Shown here piece by piece: positions 24,345-50,285 of a stretch of DNA of 51,963 nt. A model generated the notes under the pieces. It had not been told where the DNA came from. It ran no database searches and saw only the letters and a list, made by a program, of their open reading frames with translations. The number at the start of each line of letters is the position of its first letter. Positions within the stretch are counted from its first letter, which is position 1. Source of the stretch: an uncultured Candidatus Saccharibacteria bacterium. GTDB lineage: Bacteria > Patescibacteriota > Minisyncoccia > Phycocordibacterales > Zambryskibacteraceae. The stretch spans positions 1-51,963 of the forward strand of contig CAYLHJ010000005.1 in assembly GCA_964383705.1 (NCBI GenBank), in the 5' to 3' direction. The position numbers and the translations under genes are program-made.

Positions 24345-26143
24345 TACGACTCTCTCACGCTAGGACGCACGTCGACACCAGGTGGGACGCTGAACGTATA
24401 GCGAAGCAGGGTACCGACCGTGTTTGGTACGGTACCGAGCGGAAGCCAGCTCACTCCGCCGTTCGTAGAGTACTCGAAGAACCCGGGGTTCGCCGACGTG
24501 TTATGGTTAGCAACCAACGTGTTGGTAAGGTCGTACGCTCGGAAGTAGATCGTAGGAACCACGCTGGAATACGTGCTCTTCAGACGGAAAGTAACCCTTG
24601 ACGGGTTGCCCGTAGACGAATCATCATGTGAGTACTCCCAGTTGTCCGACACCTCGTTGTTTGAGGTGTAAACCAAGAAGCCTTCGTAGAACTGTAAAGG
24701 GATGGTCGATCCGTCGCGCTCAAACCGTGGCATGAGCTTGAACTGGATCTGCTGACCAGGAACGATCGCCGACATGTCCCCGTCGAGAGGCACGGCCGTC
24801 CAGCCACCAGACAGGGATCCGAAGCCTGACGTACGGTAGTATATTCGTGCGAACGAGCGGACGGGAGACGTGAAGCGGAGCGTGTGGTACGAGGCGTTCG
24901 GGGTGTCGACCACCTTCGACACGACGTAGGACGCGTCGTAAACGTCCGCCGACCGCATGTCGAACGCCTGAACGCCGATCTGACCTACGGTACTGCACGT
25001 GGTGAACAGCCACCCGTTGCGGGTCATCGTGCCGGCAAGAGCTACCGAGCCTAGCTCCTGGAACGCTACGGGGATGCCCGTGCGGAACTGCGTGTTGCCG
25101 GAGTTGCCCAGTACCAGGTCGTACGAGTTGTTCACGAACGGCTTGATGAAGAACCGCGAGGTGGCCTGCAAGACGGCTCGGTCCAGAGTGTCAGAGTAGT
25201 GCGCGGTCAGCGGAGTGATGCCGGTGTTCGTGTTGGGAACGTCGAGCACGTTCACCTGCTGAAGGGTCGGCCAAGTTACGGCTCCAGACGTCAGGTCTGA
25301 CACCCTGCCAGAGTGAAGGTTGGTGCTGGTCGGCACGAACAGCGACACGAACCCTGCGTTAGGTCCCGTAATAGGAGTATGAATCGTGAAGTTGTTCAAA
25401 AGTAGGATCGTGCCAGTAATACCAGGCAACGCTCCTGTTTGACTCACGTAAGCGTCTGCTGTGATGCCGCCGGCTAGCACCGTGGTGATGGTGAGAGACC
25501 AGTCGAACACGTAAACCTGAAACGTCGCGGTCGTGCGGTTTCCTACGTAGACTCTGGTTCCAACAAGGTCGATGTCCATGCCCTGCATGGTGGTCAGGTT
25601 GTTGGTGCCACCCGTCTCCTGAAGGAAGTAGACAGCTTTCTGTCCACCAGCGGAAGCGACCGGTAGCGTAGCGAAACCTACCGGTACGAAGTCTGCCAGA
25701 GCGACGTTGTTGAGCATGAACAATCCGCCGTTCTGAGGCTGAGATCCTACGGTTCCCACGAAGATCTTCCACCCCGTGGTTCCGGTGTCCATAGCCTTCA
25801 CCGAGCGTACGGTATGCGTGGTCGCGGGCGAGTTAGGAACCGTGTACGCCAGCTTGCCCACGTAGGTCCAGGCGCCTGTGTTCATGTCGAAGTTGTAGAG
25901 AGCGATCGTACCTAACCCGGCGGCCGGAGCGTTAACTATGAACGCTCTACCGTTGGCCGTAACCTCGATGTGCAAAGGTGTGAGCGCTGCGTTCGTAGTC
26001 ACGTCCGCGAAGGACACCAGCGGCGTGCCTACAGCAAGCTTGCTTGAGAGAGTCTTCTGCGACGCTCGTCCGACTAAGGTCGTCCGCGTCTGATCGTAAG
26101 AAGTTCCTACCGAAGTCTGAAGACCTAGCGCAACGGCTTTCAC
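24344..26143 (-). CDS. Large beta-rich putative receptor-binding / tail fibre protein
   Basis: 599 aa. Thr/Gly/Val-rich composition repeated through the N-terminal two-thirds, which reads as propeller-like beta strands, and a C-terminal jelly-roll-like region. Located in the fibre block. Confidence 0.55.
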   Translation of the reverse strand: MKAVALGLQTSVGTSYDQTRTTLVGRASQKTLSSKLAVGTPLVSFADVTTNAALTPLHIEVTANGRAFIVNAPAAGLGTIALYNFDMNTGAWTYVGKLAYTVPNSPATTHTVRSVKAMDTGTTGWKIFVGTVGSQPQNGGLFMLNNVALADFVPVGFATLPVASAGGQKAVYFLQETGGTNNLTTMQGMDIDLVGTRVYVGNRTTATFQVYVFDWSLTITTVLAGGITADAYVSQTGALPGITGTILLLNNFTIHTPITGPNAGFVSLFVPTSTNLHSGRVSDLTSGAVTWPTLQQVNVLDVPNTNTGITPLTAHYSDTLDRAVLQATSRFFIKPFVNNSYDLVLGNSGNTQFRTGIPVAFQELGSVALAGTMTRNGWLFTTCSTVGQIGVQAFDMRSADVYDASYVVSKVVDTPNASYHTLRFTSPVRSFARIYYRTSGFGSLSGGWTAVPLDGDMSAIVPGQQIQFKLMPRFERDGSTIPLQFYEGFLVYTSNNEVSDNWEYSHDDSSTGNPSRVTFRLKSTYSSVVPTIYFRAYDLTNTLVANHNTSANPGFFEYSTNGGVSWLPLGTVPNTVGTLLRYTFSVPPGVDVRPSVRES

Positions 26144-35466: not shown

Positions 35467-36366
35467 ATGAACGTCGTGCCGTACCCACAGCTTGACCGAG
35501 TCGACCAGTTCCTCCGGAGCTTCACCTCCGCGAACACCCGCGAGGCCTACGAGCGGGACCTGCGAGACTACGCGACGTTCTCCGCAGGAGCTGACCCGCT
35601 GACTTTCTCTACCCTCGCCCGGTACCGAGACGCGCTCATCGCGAGCGTGTCGCCTGCTACGGTGGTGCGCAAGTTCTCGGCGGTCAAGAGCTTCCTGGCC
35701 TTCCTGGCGTCGGAGGGGGCGATCCCGACGAACCCTGCGGCGAACCTGAAGGTTCCTCGCGCGGAGGCGAGAGAGCACACGCAAGCCTTCGAAGATCATG
35801 AGGTTGGGCAGGTTCTCTCTCAGCCGGACGTGACCACCTTCCGAGGGAGCACGAACAGGCTCGCCCTGGTCTTACTGTTCAACCTGGGACTTCGCCGCGC
35901 TGAGCTGGTGAACCTCCGCCTAGGGTCGGTGAAGGAGTACAGAGGCTCTCGGTACCTTCAAGTCTTAGGAAAGGGCGACAAGGTTCGCCTCGTTCGCCTT
36001 ACGTCTTCCGTGCTGGTCGAGCTTGAGGCGTACCTTCAGCGGTACGCCCGGTTCTCCGGAAGAGAGCTTCAGGACGGCGACTACCTTCTTCAGAGCGCCG
36101 CGAGCGCTCCTAACGAGCGTCCGGTGAGCCCTAGCACCGTGTACCGGATGGTGCGCGCCTGCGCCGTGCGTGCCGGAGTTGACCGAAGGGTCAGCCCGCA
36201 CTCTTGCCGCGCCACCGTGATCTCGCACCTCTTGGAGAAGGACGTTTCGCCTCGCGCGGTGGCCGACCTGGTCGGACACGCGAGCATCAACACGACGGTC
36301 GGGATCTACGACCGGAAGAGAGACGCCCTGCGGAGCACCACCGCAGAACAGGTTAACTACGGTTAG
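35467..36366 (+). CDS. Tyrosine recombinase / integrase, XerC/XerD-like
   Basis: 299 aa. SAM-like N-domain. Catalytic-region motifs LGLRRAEL (Arg), HSCRATVISHLL (HxxR), LVGHASINTTVGIYD (His...Tyr). Confidence 0.9.
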   Translation: MNVVPYPQLDRVDQFLRSFTSANTREAYERDLRDYATFSAGADPLTFSTLARYRDALIASVSPATVVRKFSAVKSFLAFLASEGAIPTNPAANLKVPRAEAREHTQAFEDHEVGQVLSQPDVTTFRGSTNRLALVLLFNLGLRRAELVNLRLGSVKEYRGSRYLQVLGKGDKVRLVRLTSSVLVELEAYLQRYARFSGRELQDGDYLLQSAASAPNERPVSPSTVYRMVRACAVRAGVDRRVSPHSCRATVISHLLEKDVSPRAVADLVGHASINTTVGIYDRKRDALRSTTAEQVNYG

Positions 36367-36937: not shown

Positions 36938-37315
36938 ATGAAGATCACAACCCGAGGTCGCTACGCCCTGCAAGGGCTGGTAGACCTCATCGCGAACTCT
37001 AACGGCAAGGCGGTGAAGCTCGCAGACATCGCCGCCAGGCAGGACCTGCCGCTGTTCTACCTTGAGCAGCTGTTTCGACAGCTGCGCTTAGGCGGAGTGG
37101 TCAAGAGCGTTCGAGGCCCGGGCGGCGGGTACGTGCTGAGCCGAGACGCCTCAGAGATCACCCTCCACGAGATCTTGAAGTCCGTAGAGGAGACGGAGTC
37201 TGCGAAGCTTCCGCCTAACGCGACCCGAGAGGCGATCTCCGCGCACAAGGTTTTAACCCGCATGGACGAGGCCGTCGGCCGCGTCCTCGCACAACCCCTG
37301 TCAAGTCTGCTGTGA
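36938..37315 (+). CDS. Rrf2-family winged-helix transcriptional regulator (no Cys ligands)
   Basis: 125 aa. MKITTRGRYALQGLVDL...LADIAARQDLPLFYLEQLFRQLRLGGVVKSVRGPGGGYVL is a canonical Rrf2 N-domain. The protein contains no cysteine. Confidence 0.85.
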   Translation: MKITTRGRYALQGLVDLIANSNGKAVKLADIAARQDLPLFYLEQLFRQLRLGGVVKSVRGPGGGYVLSRDASEITLHEILKSVEETESAKLPPNATREAISAHKVLTRMDEAVGRVLAQPLSSLL

Positions 37316-37707: not shown

Positions 37708-37983
37708 ATGATACCTAATCTGAACTTCACGATCGAGGTCATGATCGAGACTTACCAACAGGAGAGCGGCGGAAAGCGTCCGGCCGGCCTCTTGCTAGGA
37801 CCTTCAGAGTACCGTGAGCTGTGCAACCAAGCGAAGCGATCTCCTGATTATCTTAAAGAAGCTTCGGTAGGCAACGAGGCTATGGTGACGGAGTACAAAG
37901 GGTTCCCCGTCTACGTGAAAGAACTCCCCGGCATAGAGTTGATGATCAACTATCAGGAGGCGTTCTCGAATGCGTACCGTTAA
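37708..37983 (+). CDS. Hypothetical protein
   Basis: 91 aa ORF. Confidence 0.55.
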   Translation: MIPNLNFTIEVMIETYQQESGGKRPAGLLLGPSEYRELCNQAKRSPDYLKEASVGNEAMVTEYKGFPVYVKELPGIELMINYQEAFSNAYR

Positions 37984-38452
37984 GTATCCTGACCCGATCC
38001 TTACGACTCCGTGTCCAGAGTTCAAGTTCGGCACGATGAGCGACGCGGACCTGTTCCACATCCTAGATGAGATGGCCGCGCACATGAAAGCGGAGAAGGG
38101 TATTGGTCTTGCGGCCAACCAGGTTGGTCACTCCATACGAGTCTTCGTGATGCTCGACGCCAAGCAGAAGATTTGGGAGTTCATAAATCCTACCATCATC
38201 GAGCGCAGCGGAGGGGTCCAGCTGAACGAGGGCTGTCTGAGCGCGCCTGGTGTGGTGGTGCAGGTTCCTAGGTTTCAGACCGTAACCGTAAAGGCTTATG
38301 ATCGCACCGGAGCAGAGTTTACGGTTGTCTGTGAAGACCTAGAAGCAGTGTGTGTCCAGCACGAGCTGGACCATCTTGACGGGGTATTCTTCCTGGAGAA
38401 GACCTCACGCAACCAGCGCCGAGCAGCCCTTAAAAGTTTAGGGCTCAAGTAG
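37970..38452 (+). CDS. def: Peptide deformylase
   Basis: 160 aa. All three PDF motifs are present: GIGLAANQVG, EGCLSAPG, QHELDHLDG. Confidence 0.92.
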   Translation: MRTVKYPDPILTTPCPEFKFGTMSDADLFHILDEMAAHMKAEKGIGLAANQVGHSIRVFVMLDAKQKIWEFINPTIIERSGGVQLNEGCLSAPGVVVQVPRFQTVTVKAYDRTGAEFTVVCEDLEAVCVQHELDHLDGVFFLEKTSRNQRRAALKSLGLK

Positions 38453-45648: not shown

Positions 45649-45920
45649 GGTTTAAAACCAAGCCTATCGAGATCGAAGCGTTTGAGTACACGGGAGACGT
45701 CTCTGCGGCTCTAGCTTGGTCTGCCGAAGTGAGTCCAGGAATCTCAGCAGGAACCTATCTTTACGGTGTCGGTCGAGACGAAGACCCACAGCTGAAGATC
45801 CACACTCTTGAAGGAGACATGCACGTCTCCAGAGGAGACTGGGTGATCAAGGGACTTAAGGGTGAGTTTTATCCTTGCAAGCCAGACGTATTCGCTCAGA
45901 AGTATGAGAGGGTCGTATGA
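45645..45920 (+). CDS. Conserved phage hypothetical protein (GDWVIKG...EFYPCKPDVF motif)
   Basis: 91 aa, ATGA coupling. Confidence 0.6.
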   Translation: MRFKTKPIEIEAFEYTGDVSAALAWSAEVSPGISAGTYLYGVGRDEDPQLKIHTLEGDMHVSRGDWVIKGLKGEFYPCKPDVFAQKYERVV

Positions 45921-46447
45921 AGGTATACGTAGCAGGGCCGGACGTGTTCCGGCCTGACGCGCAAGCGAACGCTGACAAGGTGAAGCAGCTTCTCGCCAGC
46001 CACGGGATAGAAGCGCTGATCCCGATCGACAACGACGTAGACGTGGTAGGTAAGTCTTACTACCAGATCGCCACCGAGATCTATCAGAAGAACGTCAAGA
46101 TGATCGACGAGGCAGACGCCGTCATCGCGAACATAGAACCGTTCCGAGGCGTTCACATGGACCCGGGAACCGCCTTCGAGATCGGGTACGCCGTGGCCAG
46201 AGGGAAGCCCGTCTACACGTTCACGCCTTACGCAGGAACGCCGATCATAGGTCGGACGGAGTGGCGTCAGGAAGGCGACGTACACCGGGACGAGAAGGGG
46301 TGCTTCATCGAGAACTTCGGTGAGACCGAGAACTTGATGATCATCATCCCGTCTGAGGCTACCGTGAAGAGCGTCGAGCAGGCGGTAGCTTGTCTGGTGC
46401 GAGACAACACCGAGAGCCCGAACGATAGCTTCGAAGAGCACGCCTGA
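45917..46447 (+). CDS. Nucleoside 2-deoxyribosyltransferase-like protein
   Basis: 176 aa. MKVYVAGPDVF and DPGTAFEIGYAVARGKPVY match the Nuc_deoxyrib_tr family pattern. Confidence 0.75.
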   Translation: MKVYVAGPDVFRPDAQANADKVKQLLASHGIEALIPIDNDVDVVGKSYYQIATEIYQKNVKMIDEADAVIANIEPFRGVHMDPGTAFEIGYAVARGKPVYTFTPYAGTPIIGRTEWRQEGDVHRDEKGCFIENFGETENLMIIIPSEATVKSVEQAVACLVRDNTESPNDSFEEHA

Positions 46448-47071: not shown

Positions 47072-47101
47072 TTGCGCTTCGTACCGCAAGTGCGGTATGC
47101 T
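47072..47101 (+). promoter_or_regulatory. Weak promoter candidate TTGCGC-N18-TATGCT, with a structured leader
   Basis: Located in the 103-nt gap before the Prs-like gene. Hairpins TACCGC-aagt-GCGGTA and GCCGCC-tgatt-GGCGGT. Strong SD GAGGAGGA. Confidence 0.3.
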
Positions 47102-47162
47102 GGTGTGGAAGCCGCCTGATTGGCGGTAGCTGAGTCGGAAGGATAGTTCCGAGGAGGACGAC

Positions 47163-47939
47163 ATGATCACGCTGAACGGCCAACCGTTGCCGGTTACCTT
47201 ATTCCCAGACCGCACGTCTCAGGTGTGGAAGCTTCCCGAAGAGATCTTGACCAGGACGAACTACGCACACGTCGTGTGGAAGTTCGAGAGCGAGGGTGAG
47301 TTCCTTCACGTCGCTCAGCTCAAGGACCTGCTTGACGCGCACGGGATCGCCGCCACCCTGCGCCTTACGTACCTACCGTACGGACGACAAGACAAAGCTC
47401 TAAGCAACAACGCCACGTTCGCCCTGACCACCTTCGCGCGACTGCTCAACTCGCTGCGGTTCTACGAGGTAGTGATCCACGACCCACACAGCAGCATGGC
47501 GCTGCACCTGATCAACAACTCCCGCCCTCAGTACCCCAAGGCTCAGATCAAGCAGGCCCTCGCGGACTGCGAGATCGACATGGTCTGCTACCCCGACGCG
47601 GGCGCCCTAGAGAAGTACTCTAACACCTACGAACTCGACCGACCGGTGATCCACGGTGAGAAAGTTCGAGACCAGTCTACCGGAAACATCCTGAGCTACC
47701 AGCTCGTAGGAGACCCCAAGGATCGCAACGTCCTGATCGTCGACGACATCTGCGACGGCGGGATGACGTTCAAGCTTCTGGCCAGAGACCTGCTGGCCAA
47801 AGGTGCGAGGAGCGTGGTGCTCTTCGTCACTCACGGTATCTTTTCCCGAGGAACGAGAACCCTCTTCGAGACGGGTATCAAACGCGTGTTCACGGCCGAC
47901 GGAGAAGTCGGCCCGCGCACCTGGTCACAACAACTCTGA
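47163..47939 (+). CDS. Ribose-phosphate pyrophosphokinase (Prs)-family enzyme; candidate ADP-ribose pyrophosphokinase (NARP1 Adps-like)
   Basis: 258 aa, shorter than a typical Prs. LTYLPYGRQDK, HDPHS, and PRTase loop VLIVDDICDGGMTF. Directly upstream of the NAMPT-like gene. Confidence 0.8.
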   Translation: MITLNGQPLPVTLFPDRTSQVWKLPEEILTRTNYAHVVWKFESEGEFLHVAQLKDLLDAHGIAATLRLTYLPYGRQDKALSNNATFALTTFARLLNSLRFYEVVIHDPHSSMALHLINNSRPQYPKAQIKQALADCEIDMVCYPDAGALEKYSNTYELDRPVIHGEKVRDQSTGNILSYQLVGDPKDRNVLIVDDICDGGMTFKLLARDLLAKGARSVVLFVTHGIFSRGTRTLFETGIKRVFTADGEVGPRTWSQQL

Positions 47940-47954
47940 TCTTAGGAGATTAAG

Positions 47955-49430
47955 ATGAGAAACCTAAACCCGATGTTACTAGCCGACTTCTACAAGCTGT
48001 CCCACAGGGCCATGTACCCACACGGCACCGAGACGGTCTACTCAACCTGGACTCCCCGAGCGAGCCGTATCAAGAACGTGCTCGAAGCGGTCCACTTTGG
48101 ACCCCAGGCCATGCTCAAGAAGATCACCGACTTCTTCGCCCGCGAGTTCTTCGCCAAGCCGAAAGAGGAGATCGTCTCCGACTACGCTCGCGTCGTGAAG
48201 CATACGCTGGGCGATCCCAACCCCTACACCAAGCACATCGAGGAGCTTCACGACCTAGGGTACCTACCTCTCTCGGTCCGGTCTCTTCCCGAGGGGTCGG
48301 TGGTACCTATCCGCACGCCGGTCATGACGATCCAGAACACGCATCCTCGCTTCTTCTGGCTCACCAACTACGTAGAGACTATTGCGAGCTGTGAGATGTG
48401 GCAGGCTTCTACCTCGGCCACGATCGCTAGGGAGTACCGTCGTCTGCTCGACGAAGCTGCGATGGAGACCGTGGGCAGTACGGACTTCGTGCAGTTCCAG
48501 GGACACGACTTTTCGATGCGCGGCATGAGTTCGTTAGACTCTGCGGTGTCGAGCGGCATGGGACACCTGCTGTCCTTCGCAGGCACCGACACGGTCCCCG
48601 CGATCCAAGCTGCCGAGCAGCTGTACGGTGCGGACGTTACCAAGGAGCTGGTGGGCACCTCGATCCCGGCCACCGAGCACTCTATCCAGTGCGCGTACGG
48701 CGACGACATGGACTACTACCGAAACATGATCAGCCGAGTTCACCCCTCCGGCTTCGTGTCTATCGTGTCTGACGGCTACGACTTCTGGGACGTCATCGGT
48801 CGCGTCATCCCTGCCCTGAAGCAGGACATCCTGGCACGCTCTGGCGGACCTTTGGGAGACCGAGTAGTAGTTCGACCTGACTCCGGAGATCCGGTCAAGA
48901 TCGTCTGCGGTGATCCTGACGCTCCAGTCGGAAGCTTGGAGCACAAGGGCGCTATCGAAGCTCTGTGGGACATCTTCGGCGGAACGCTATCTCCGAAGGG
49001 GTACCGCCTGCTGGACTCTCACATCGGCCTGATCTACGGAGACGCTATCACCCTGCACCGCGCCAAGGAGATCGTAGGCCGCCTCAAGGAGAAAGGCTTC
49101 GCCTCTATCAACGTGGTGTTCGGCATCGGCTCGTACACGTACCAGTACAACACTCGCGACACGCTTGGCTACGCGCTGAAGTCGACCTTGTGCGTGATCG
49201 ACGGTCAAGAGGTTCAGATCTTCAAGGATCCCAAGACGGACGACGGGACGAAGAAGTCTCAGAAGGGCCGAGTGGTGGTTCTTAAGGACGGGAACTCGTT
49301 CAAGCACCTAGACGGCTTCAGCCTGTCTGACGACGTCAAGGGAGACCAGCTCGTAGAGATCTTCCGCGACGGGAAGCTCCTGGTCGACGAGAAGTTCTCT
49401 GAGATCCGCGCGAGGCTTCGCTCCGCGTGA
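47955..49430 (+). CDS. nadV: Nicotinamide phosphoribosyltransferase family enzyme (NadV/NAMPT-like; candidate NARP1 Namat)
   Basis: 491 aa. Aligns by eye along its full length with bacterial NadV: LLADFYKLSHR, FFWLTNYVET, HDFSMRGMSS, GTSIPATEHS, RPDSGDP, IYGDAIT, NTRDTLGYALK, KKSQKGRV. Confidence 0.9.
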   Translation: MRNLNPMLLADFYKLSHRAMYPHGTETVYSTWTPRASRIKNVLEAVHFGPQAMLKKITDFFAREFFAKPKEEIVSDYARVVKHTLGDPNPYTKHIEELHDLGYLPLSVRSLPEGSVVPIRTPVMTIQNTHPRFFWLTNYVETIASCEMWQASTSATIAREYRRLLDEAAMETVGSTDFVQFQGHDFSMRGMSSLDSAVSSGMGHLLSFAGTDTVPAIQAAEQLYGADVTKELVGTSIPATEHSIQCAYGDDMDYYRNMISRVHPSGFVSIVSDGYDFWDVIGRVIPALKQDILARSGGPLGDRVVVRPDSGDPVKIVCGDPDAPVGSLEHKGAIEALWDIFGGTLSPKGYRLLDSHIGLIYGDAITLHRAKEIVGRLKEKGFASINVVFGIGSYTYQYNTRDTLGYALKSTLCVIDGQEVQIFKDPKTDDGTKKSQKGRVVVLKDGNSFKHLDGFSLSDDVKGDQLVEIFRDGKLLVDEKFSEIRARLRSA

Positions 49431-49852
49431 GGTATCGTACAGGAAACTTGTTCGACGCTCCGAAGGGCTCCTACCTGCTCCACGCGTGTAACTGCGTGGG
49501 GCGGTGGGGCTCTGGAGTTGCTGCTGAGTTCGCCCGACGCTTCCCCAAGGCGTACGGAGAGTACAAGGCTAGATGCAAGTACGGGGTCAAGCCGGGAGAC
49601 ATCTTCATCAGCTCGGAGGAGAACGGGTACCGGATAATCGGCCTGTTCACGTCGAAGGACTACGGAGATCGCGTAGACTCTCCGAGCAAGATCATCGAGG
49701 CGACTAAGGTCGCCATCCGGAAGCTTCCTTACGATCGTCCGATCCACATGCCCAAGATCAACTCAGGACTCTTTCGCGTCCCGTGGGAGAACACGGCCGC
49801 GCTCTTCCTCGAAGAGACCCGAGACATCACCGTATGGGAAGTTTCTCCTTGA
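49427..49852 (+). CDS. Macro domain protein, Poa1-like (ADP-ribose 1''-phosphate phosphatase type)
   Basis: 141 aa. GTGA coupling to nadV. HACNCVGRWGSGVA, GLFTS and MPKINSGLFRVPWENTA parallel yeast Poa1 HSCNCNGSWGGGIA, LFTS and MPQINSGIFGVPWKETE. Confidence 0.8.
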   Translation: MRYRTGNLFDAPKGSYLLHACNCVGRWGSGVAAEFARRFPKAYGEYKARCKYGVKPGDIFISSEENGYRIIGLFTSKDYGDRVDSPSKIIEATKVAIRKLPYDRPIHMPKINSGLFRVPWENTAALFLEETRDITVWEVSP

Positions 49853-49883: not shown

Positions 49884-50285
49884 GGGGCCGACGGGTTTCG
49901 ACGGTCTTACGTGAAAGAGAAGAGCAAGCCCCGGTTGGTCGAAGGCCGGGTAAAAATCGACCACACAACCTGCCAACTCCAAAGTTGTCAGCTTGGATGC
50001 TTTCCGCGCTCGCAAGGGCGTGTTGAGCCTCCAACTCGCGGCCTAAGAACCACGACGGGGCTACCTGAGCGCCTTGTAAACAAAGCCAGGTAAACCGGGT
50101 GTTCAGCCGGGTAAAAAGAGGAAAATGGGGTTGCCGGACCTCAAGAAGAAAACCGGTTGGTGGAGGAAGCAAAGGCGCAAGCCGGAGCGTCCCTAAGGTC
50201 TGAGCCGGACTTGAAACGGCCTAAGCTTGTAGACCCTCTCTGGAACCAAGATCGGACGGGAGTTCAACTCTCCCCGGCTCCACCA
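49884..50285 (+). ncRNA. ssrA: Transfer-messenger RNA (tmRNA, one-piece)
   Basis: 5' GGGGCCGACGGGTTTCGACGG and 3' GGACGGGAGTTCAACTCTCCCCGGCTCCACCA match canonical tmRNA ends. Acceptor stem GGGGCCG/CGGCTCC has G3:U. T-arm GGGAG-TTCAACT-CTCCC. Encoded CCA. Tag ORF runs from GCC at 49972 (nt 89 of the RNA) to TAA at 50044-50046: ANSKVVSLDAFRARKGVLSLQLAA. Confidence 0.92.

Follow-up and report, generated by a model that had tools for sequence, protein, structure and literature searches.

We analysed a three-gene operon on contig CAYLHJ010000005.1 (51,963 nucleotides, about 52 kb, the whole of which we call the window) that encodes an Adps-like kinase, a Namat-like transferase and a macro-domain protein. 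The operon is probably a counter-defence system of the NARP1-AP type, which would rebuild nicotinamide adenine dinucleotide (NAD+) from the debris of NAD-destroying defences. NARP1-AP was described by Osterman et al. (January 2026, bioRxiv 10.64898/2026.01.28.702374) as the combination of Adps, Namat and a macro phosphatase, Adpp, that counters RES-domain NADases. According to that work, the RES-domain protein aRES phosphorolyses NAD+ to nicotinamide and ADP-ribose (ADPR)-1''-phosphate (ADPR-1''-P), a product unusable for Adps. aRES is overcome by the Adps-Adpp-Namat operon of Vibrio phage Gary, whose Adpp, once purified, turns ADPR-1P into ADPR. A macro-domain gene lies within two genes in 15% of 859 NARP1 operons, and the closest characterised homologue of the NARP1-linked macro proteins is yeast Poa1p. 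Operons are assigned to NARP1-AP in the same study where a macro protein (PF01661, PF14519 or PF20016) is encoded within two genes of a NARP1 operon. In the window, the macro protein matches PF01661 at 3.5e-12 and its gene overlaps the namat stop codon. An initial annotation of this DNA was right on the mechanism but wrong on novelty, having taken the three-gene version to be undescribed when the design had already been published.

The three open reading frames (ORFs) are co-directional on the plus strand and tightly packed in the order Adps-Namat-macro (Table 1). The adps and namat genes are 15 nt apart (tcttAGGAGattaag), with the Shine-Dalgarno (SD) sequence AGGAG inside the gap. The namat stop TGA (49428-49430) and the macro start GTG (49427-49429) share a 4-nt overlap, GTGA. 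The initial annotation had reported this layout, and both the ORF coordinates and the sequence agree with it. Family matches in Pfam and PHROG are far beyond chance for all three proteins, and by these searches all three ORFs are beyond doubt real genes.

In the proposed pathway, a host defence would destroy NAD+, and the Adps-like kinase would use ATP to pyrophosphorylate free ADPR at C1'', yielding ADPR pyrophosphate (ADPR-PP). The Namat-like transferase would then swap the pyrophosphate for nicotinamide, giving NAD+ directly with no requirement for a nicotinamide mononucleotide (NMN) adenylyltransferase (NMNAT). The translationally coupled Poa1-type macro protein would strip the 1''-phosphate from ADPR-1''-P, the product of RES-domain NAD+ phosphorylases such as aRES, and the dephosphorylated ADPR would rejoin the ADPR pool, extending the reach of the pathway to RES-domain defences. 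The predicted Adps and Namat steps rest on close homology to biochemically and structurally characterised proteins; for the macro step, the basis is homology to yeast Poa1p together with analogy to Gary Adpp.

The three proteins of the operon

The 258-aa protein matches PHROG 619 'ribose-phosphate pyrophosphokinase' (6.6e-63) and Pfam Pribosyltran. It was compared, as had been proposed with the initial annotation, with both Prs and published Adps proteins. Scores of 125 bits (36% identity) against Gary Adps and 111 bits (34% identity) against the Adps of Bacillus phage SPbetaL1 contrast with 40 bits (24% identity) against E. coli Prs and no more than 56 bits against any Prs in the PDB. All NCBIfam Prs models score under their cut-offs (for example 85 versus 113, and 62 versus 296). 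The catalytic Lys of Adps, which was mutated in both published systems (SPbetaL1 NARP1 and Gary NARP1-AP), is K162 in SPbetaL1, K192 in Gary and K197 in B. subtilis Prs. It corresponds to K167 of the 258-aa protein and is invariant in our alignment (A1). The phosphoribosyl pyrophosphate (PRPP) loop, VDDICDGGMT, occupies residues 193-202. The initial annotation had correctly recognised a short Prs-family enzyme with this loop, but the loop it called atypical is typical of Adps, the Gary protein having VDDISDGG. On pairwise scores and model cut-offs, rather than a full phylogeny, the 258-aa protein groups with validated Adps and not with cellular Prs.

The 491-aa protein matches PHROG 448 'nicotinamide phosphoribosyl transferase' (9e-191) as well as Pfam NAPRTase (5.5e-42) and NAMPT_N, in keeping with its first description as a full-length NAMPT homologue. 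Its closest structures are those of SPbetaL1 Namat (PDB 9W5X/9W5W; 1e-185, 621 bits, 57% identity), with human NAMPT at about 1e-64; identity is 41% to Gary Namat and 33% to NARP2-type Nampt. Crystal structures of SPbetaL1 Namat, reported in a 2026 NAR paper, defined a clamp-helix motif specific to Namat, GSX-Phi-X-Phi-X-Phi-TRD, with adenine-stacking aromatics at motif positions 3 and 7 and an additional Arg in the clamp loop (Arg40 in SPbetaL1). The signature is present in the 491-aa protein as GSYTYQYNTRD (residues 392-402), with Y394 and Y398 at the aromatic positions and R38 in place of Arg40. The catalytic R306 and D308 of SPbetaL1 correspond to R307 and D309, and the catalytic His of Gary Namat, H243, to H242. 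Of the 20 NAD-contact residues, 19 are identical and the last, an F392 to Y394 exchange, is conserved as well.

The clamp motif was found in every Namat homologue adjoining an Adps gene (16 related loci). As an internal negative control, the NARP2-type Nampt of locus L014 has GMGGGLLQKLNRD at the same site, with no aromatic residues. The comparison with Nampt and Namat that had been suggested for the 491-aa protein therefore comes out for Namat on its signature, R38, NAD contacts and identity to SPbetaL1 Namat. Taken with the Adps scores and the essential residues, this agrees, at the level of sequence, with the initial proposal of a NARP1 pair rather than plain PRPP/NMN salvage.

Sequence and fold comparisons of the 141-aa macro protein both place Poa1p first. 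A phmmer search of the PDB returned Poa1p (6LFQ) at 6.6e-18, followed by DarG (5M31, 4e-8) and TARG1 (4J5R, 8e-8). The AlphaFold model, built with 35 homologues, has a pLDDT (predicted local distance difference test) of 96.6, and Foldseek ranks Poa1p structures on top (TM 0.88, E = 2e-14), with DarG and TARG1 as a second tier at E = 1e-10 to 1e-11 (5M3E, 4e-11). The motif resemblance to Poa1p noted in the initial annotation is thus borne out. Twelve residues are invariant in the 35 family members (H19, N22, G25, W27, G30, S76, I111, N112, F116, V118, P119 and W120); H19 is the counterpart of H23 in Poa1p and of H24 in Gary Adpp, and F116 that of Poa1p F152. In Gary Adpp, the H24A mutation (identified from the primer table of the paper) abolishes anti-aRES activity (bioRxiv 10.64898/2026.01.28.702374). 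By sequence and fold, and with the essential His kept, the 141-aa protein is a Poa1-type macro protein, with a predicted ADPR-1''-P phosphatase activity. The initial annotation had supposed that the macro protein frees ADPR from other NADase products; for ADPR-1''-P this has been demonstrated with the Gary protein, and the essential residues are conserved here.

Macro subfamily, linkage and competing explanations

The Adps-Namat-macro order and the 4-nt overlap are kept in relatives with 69% and 65% macro identity, which come from independent metagenomic contigs. More widely, the window-type macro family comprises 91 metagenomic or viral protein clusters and 25 IMG/VR loci. Counting how often such a macro gene lies near Adps and Namat had been set as a check in advance. 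Both genes were found within 8 kb at 10 of the 25 IMG/VR loci, or at 8 of about 22 distinct loci once duplicates are removed. The arrangements vary: the macro gene may be adjacent, 0.7-2 kb apart or 6 kb apart, and once the order is the Gary-like Adps-macro-Namat. Against the overall frequency of NARP1 in phage genomes, about 4.3%, the linkage is strongly enriched; the loci are related, and we attach no formal probability to the enrichment.

A set of 185,579 bacterial and archaeal species, with one genome apiece, was scanned for INSGLF[RNK]VP, a single exact pattern of limited sensitivity rather than a sensitive census. It was found on one contig only (L044, a 5.9-kb fragment of a metagenome-assembled genome), which has no NARP genes and offers no clue to the host. 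On the strength of this one pattern, the family looks essentially phage-borne among prokaryote-associated sequence. Among cultured-phage proteins, only that of Myxococcus phage Mx1 (L001 5992-6489; 47%) exceeds 35% identity to the window macro. The Mx1 gene is not beside Adps or Namat; about 4.4 kb upstream of it is a gene with the annotation nicotinamide-nucleotide adenylyltransferase.

Several points weigh against the assignment to a NARP1-AP-type system. The window macro shares only 23% identity (30 bits) with the validated Gary Adpp, whose best PDB sequence matches are TARG1 and not Poa1p, and we did not find it to be an ortholog of the validated Adpp family (Gary plus the other proteins of Table S1 in Osterman et al.). 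A Table S1-type profile, drawn from 12 distinct proteins, all from the first quarter of that table, plus Gary, scores the window macro at 46 bits, versus 192 bits for the profile of its own family. Cross-scoring separates the two sets: window-type proteins score 164-216 bits with the window-type profile and 21-56 bits with the Table S1-type profile, and Table S1 proteins score 13-52 and 170-220 bits, respectively. Yeast Poa1p, taken as fragments 9-113 and 143-173, scores 91.5 and 35.3 bits with the window-type profile and 30.1 and 8.0 bits with the Table S1-type profile. The window family motifs INSG, NSGL, LFTS, WGSG and WGAG occur nowhere in Table S1. By these measures the window macro and the published NARP1-linked macros fall into separate subfamilies, and the assignment of the window macro therefore rests on yeast Poa1p and not on the phage Adpp. 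Poa1p Ser30, the residue mutated in PDB 6LFT, corresponds to Arg26 in the window macro; the Gary protein also has Arg.

The linkage has its own exceptions, more than half of the viral loci having no NARP1 gene within 8 kb of the macro gene. Two loci in particular show that the tie between the macro gene and NARP1 is not obligatory. A syntenic relative (L013 2533-4698) keeps the macro gene (52% identity) and a nucleoside 2-deoxyribosyltransferase gene, with ORFs of 119 and 68 aa replacing Adps and Namat, so that the NARP1 core behaves like a cassette gained or lost beside a resident macro gene. At the second locus (L014 3871-7268), a NARP2-like operon encodes an NMNAT-Nudix protein (376 aa), a macro protein (147 aa, 54% identical), a 144-aa ORF and a PRPP-type Nampt (460 aa). 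Because NARP2 cancels aRES without a phosphatase (bioRxiv 10.64898/2026.01.28.702374), a supply of ADPR to Adps does not account for this association; a possibility for this single case is conversion of ADPR-1''-P to ADPR followed by Nudix cleavage to AMP and ribose-5-phosphate. Finally, exposure of the phage to RES-type NADases is an assumption, and the substrates, the activities and the defences countered are predictions from homology.

The strongest competing explanation accepts the NARP1 core as genuine and gives the macro protein another main task, namely clearing the ADPR-1''-P or ADPR-1''-2''-cyclic phosphate of NAD-dependent RNA repair (KptA/Tpt1), or hydrolysing some other soluble ADPR derivative such as O-acetyl-ADPR or a Thoeris signal, with its adjacency to NARP1 serving to recycle ADPR. 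The loci just described fit this explanation, the syntenic relative having the same macro subfamily without NARP1 and the NARP2-like operon having no need of ADPR. So does locus L016, where a window-type macro gene lies beside RlaP and Metallophos genes in an RNA-repair-like context (other loci have unrelated neighbours). Macro homologues are spread over 927 phage records of diverse kinds, and the physiological role of yeast Poa1p is itself the clearance of RNA-splicing by-products. We nevertheless regard this explanation as unlikely: a scan of 20 neighbouring plus-strand ORFs in the window turned up no KptA, 2H or RNA ligase domain, the translational coupling of macro and namat is conserved, and NARP1 lies nearby in about 40% of viral loci with a window-type macro. 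The chemistry, ADPR-1''-P to ADPR, would in any case equal that of the NARP1-AP-type explanation.

Plain NAD salvage is considerably less probable still. Here the 258-aa protein would be a short PRPP synthetase and the 491-aa protein would make NMN, with a host NMNAT or one encoded distally in the phage completing the synthesis. The Pfam, PHROG and NCBIfam names (ribose-phosphate pyrophosphokinase, nicotinate/nicotinamide phosphoribosyltransferase) point this way, and SPbetaL1 Namat does still make NMN from PRPP in vitro. A tblastn search of the window with a phage NMNAT-Nudix protein and the NMNAT-annotated protein of Mx1 gave noise (best E = 1.2), in agreement with the initial annotation, which saw no NMNAT in the window. 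The search covered 52 kb of a genome of about 118.6 kb, less than half, so an NMNAT may lie elsewhere in it. Against salvage stand the far greater closeness of the 258-aa protein to validated Adps than to Prs, with every Prs model under its cut-off, and the intact adenine clamp of the 491-aa protein (aromatic positions 3 and 7 plus the loop Arg), which the true NARP2 Nampt does not have. Moreover, SPbetaL1 Adps pyrophosphorylates ADPR and gives no product in the ribose-5-phosphate arm (as stated in the figure legend; the body text calls the substrate 'PRPP').

That the macro protein is a TARG1- or DarG-like ADP-ribosyl glycohydrolase acting on DNA or protein, anti-DarT or anti-ART and independent of NARP1, is scarcely credible: DarG and TARG1 do form the second tier of sequence and fold matches and the NCBIfam DarG model covers macro residues 2-66, but its score of 42.9 bits is far under the cut-off of 250, the position of the catalytic Lys (TARG1 K84, DarG K80) is Ser76, invariant in the 35 homologues, with the neighbouring Lys77 variable, and that of TARG1 Asp125 is Phe116, invariant in the macro family and the same as in Poa1p. 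The TARG1 numbering is that of the human sequence and fits the published positions K84 and D125. Because of these replacements by invariant residues, a role as a DarG-like DNA de-ADP-ribosylase is unlikely, and the DarT-type counter-defence raised in the initial annotation is not upheld.

Returning to the NARP1-AP-type explanation, the window macro is a homologous, non-orthologous replacement of the published Adpp and is probably isofunctional with it. What is modestly new is that a Poa1-proper macro subfamily, outside the published set, is recurrently linked to NARP1 in uncultured phages. It is conceivable, though we hold it only tentatively, that NARP1 recruited a macro phosphatase at least twice, once from the published Adpp subfamily (found in Vibrio, Pseudomonas, Acinetobacter and Pseudoalteromonas phages) and once from the Poa1-proper subfamily (INSGLFxVPW). 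If so, either defences that produce ADPR-1''-P would exert selection broadly, far beyond enterobacterial aRES, or Poa1-proper macros would process a further ADPR derivative, with a substrate range unlike that of the published NARP1-AP.

The finding would be unsurprising to a specialist in 2026. NARP1-AP, known from cultured phages of gammaproteobacteria, would now reach a lineage that is uncultured, higher in GC and equipped with an SPO1-like capsid. The finding also suggests that the place of the accessory phosphatase can be taken by macro proteins of a non-orthologous subfamily truly related to yeast Poa1p. This supports a modular view of NAD+ reconstitution operons, in which a conserved two-enzyme core is combined with interchangeable adaptors (Adpp, RyDEP or a Poa1-type macro) funnelling NADase products into ADPR. 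Standard annotation, as ribose-phosphate pyrophosphokinase, nicotinate phosphoribosyltransferase and macro-domain protein, would overlook the counter-defence system.

Leader signals and phage genome

A weak promoter candidate and a hairpin precede the adps gene. The initial annotation began the element at 47072, which is the first base of the promoter-like hexamer pair. This pair matches the sigma-70 consensus at 7 of 12 positions and aligns (A5) with stronger hexamers (TTGA.. / TATACT, TAGGCT) that precede Adps in the relatives L008 and L010. A sigma-70 consensus scan of 45.5-50.8 kb called no promoter, there or elsewhere in that interval, and terminator-like matches in the same interval were not above shuffled expectation; we infer the pair as a promoter candidate, and a weak one. 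The 110-nt Adps leader folds at -43.9 kcal/mol (z = -2.9). Its hairpin is kept in L008, L010 and L019, and across the four sequences compared two stem pairs are switched on both sides (CG to GC and GC to CG). The hairpin may be a translational or stability element.

Table 1 Features of the operon and its surroundings in the window
Feature	Position	Strand	Description
Weak sigma-70-like promoter candidate	47072-47101	+	TTGCGC (47072-47077), 18-nt spacer, TATGCT (47096-47101); read from sequence
5'-leader hairpin	47135-47150	+	CGGAA-GGATAG-TTCCG, 5-bp stem; directly 5' of the Adps SD GAGGAGG (47151-47157)
adps-like gene	47163-47939	+	258 aa, ATG start; predicted ADP-ribose pyrophosphokinase making ADPR-PP
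namat-like gene	47955-49430	+	491 aa, ATG start; predicted nicotinamide ADP-ribose transferase (ADPR-PP + nicotinamide to NAD+)
Poa1-type macro-domain gene	49427-49852	+	141 aa, GTG start; predicted ADPR-1''-phosphate phosphatase (Adpp-like)
tmRNA gene	49884-50285	+	complete, 31 nt downstream of macro; Rfam RF00023, 106 bits versus gathering 47; encoded CCA end
tmRNA predicted tag frame	49972-50046		encodes ANSKVVSLDAFRARKGVLSLQLAA
Nucleoside 2-deoxyribosyltransferase gene	45917-46447	+	PF05014, 1.2e-35
Peptide deformylase gene	37970-38452	+	PF01327, 2e-41
Rrf2-family regulator gene	36938-37315	+	6e-27
Tyrosine integrase gene	35467-36366	+	PF00589, 1.2e-22
Large structural ORF	24347-26143	-	no phage-database match

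The operon belongs to a block of small plus-strand genes, early or metabolic in type, and this block lies downstream of a structural module on the minus strand. The block also encodes an exonuclease, an M78-like peptidase, a nucleoside 2-deoxyribosyltransferase, a peptide deformylase, an Rrf2 regulator, a tyrosine integrase, a class IV aminotransferase, an AAA ATPase and a calcineurin-like phosphoesterase. The locus recurs with 99% identity on a 118,609-bp contig (L007; Logan SRR12404947_8082), and GC content is about 57%. The capsid protein is about 36% identical to those of SPO1-like Bacillus phages. With so distant a capsid and the large structural ORF unmatched, no host is assigned. Megablast of the operon against phage genomes (INPHARED) returned only short Gordonia phage matches in namat, and no close cultured relative. 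By its sequence the source is an uncultured large phage of about 118 kb with a distantly SPO1-like capsid. The integrase is unexpected in a myovirus-like genome of about 118 kb with such a capsid.

The nucleoside 2-deoxyribosyltransferase gene lies within about 1 kb of NARP1-AP or the macro gene in four diverged relatives (the window; L008 2677-3177; L010 4821-5303; L013 2533-3024), despite a switch between upstream and downstream positions. Since the more distant IMG/VR loci showed no such gene near NARP1, its position may reflect lineage synteny and not functional coupling.

Downstream of the operon is a transfer-messenger RNA (tmRNA) gene, whose predicted tag is unusually long. ARAGORN reported no tRNA or tmRNA in the window, a negative that we do not trust, as Rfam finds the full tmRNA. 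The gene is also present in L007 and is absent at that position in L008, L010 and L013. An RF-1-domain protein of 108-109 aa (ArfB-like size) is encoded about 2.5 kb downstream of the operon, beyond the 3' end of the window, in L007 (8938-9267) and L008 (7349-7675). Together with the peptide deformylase, the tmRNA and RF-1-domain protein suggest a gene set for translation rescue and maintenance in the phage.

Comparison with known systems

Among the other NAD+ reconstitution pathways, NARP3 (PnuC + NadR) was rejected, no such genes being involved. NARP2 (Nampt + NMNAT-Nudix, Vibrio phage KVP40) shares a NAMPT-family enzyme and an anti-NAD-depletion role with the window operon. Unlike the latter, NARP2 uses PRPP and needs an NMNAT; no NMNAT was found in the 52-kb window and its NAMPT-family protein has the Namat clamp, and we therefore do not assign the operon to NARP2. 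The NARP1 + RyDEP system of Mycobacterium phage DyoEdafos (May 2026, bioRxiv 10.64898/2026.05.28.727677) is similar in that an accessory enzyme turns a non-substrate NAD derivative into linear ADPR. There, the accessory is a RyR-domain glycosidase acting on 2'/3' cyclic ADPR, in contrast to the macro protein of the window, and the scan of the 20 plus-strand ORFs nearby gave no RyR domain.

The macro domains of TARG1/OARD1 and DarG belong to the same clade and share the fold, but a TARG1- or DarG-type function was rejected on the catalytic residues, their Lys and Asp being replaced by invariant Ser and Phe. Likeness to yeast Poa1p (PDB 6LFQ) is closer, and extends over the motifs H-x-C-N-C, G-x-W-G-x-G, L-F-T-S and I-N-S-G-[IL]-F-x-V-P-W, with Poa1p H23 and F152 kept. 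The window macro differs in missing an insert of about 30 residues (approximately 114-142 of Poa1p) and in having Arg where Poa1p has S30. Poa1p clears tRNA-splicing by-products and is not part of an NAD reconstitution operon.

The NARP1 pair of SPbetaL1 has no adjoining macro gene. In other respects it is very similar, with adjacent adps and namat genes, the same catalytic Lys in an Adps of 34% identity, and a Namat of 57% identity whose clamp helix is identical bar one F to Y exchange and whose clamp Arg and NAD contacts are all shared.

Gary NARP1-AP differs from the window operon in gene order (Adps-macro-Namat), although window-like orders also occur in Table S1 of Osterman et al., and in the macro subfamily, for which the best PDB match is TARG1 in Gary and Poa1p in the window. 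The phages differ as well, the published examples being Vibrio, Pseudomonas and Acinetobacter phages, and the window phage uncultured, with 57% GC and an SPO1-like capsid. Both systems nonetheless combine the three functions in one co-directional operon, with 36% identity between the Adps and 41% between the Namat proteins, and the residues essential in Gary, K192, H243 and H24, correspond to K167, H242 and H19 in the window proteins.

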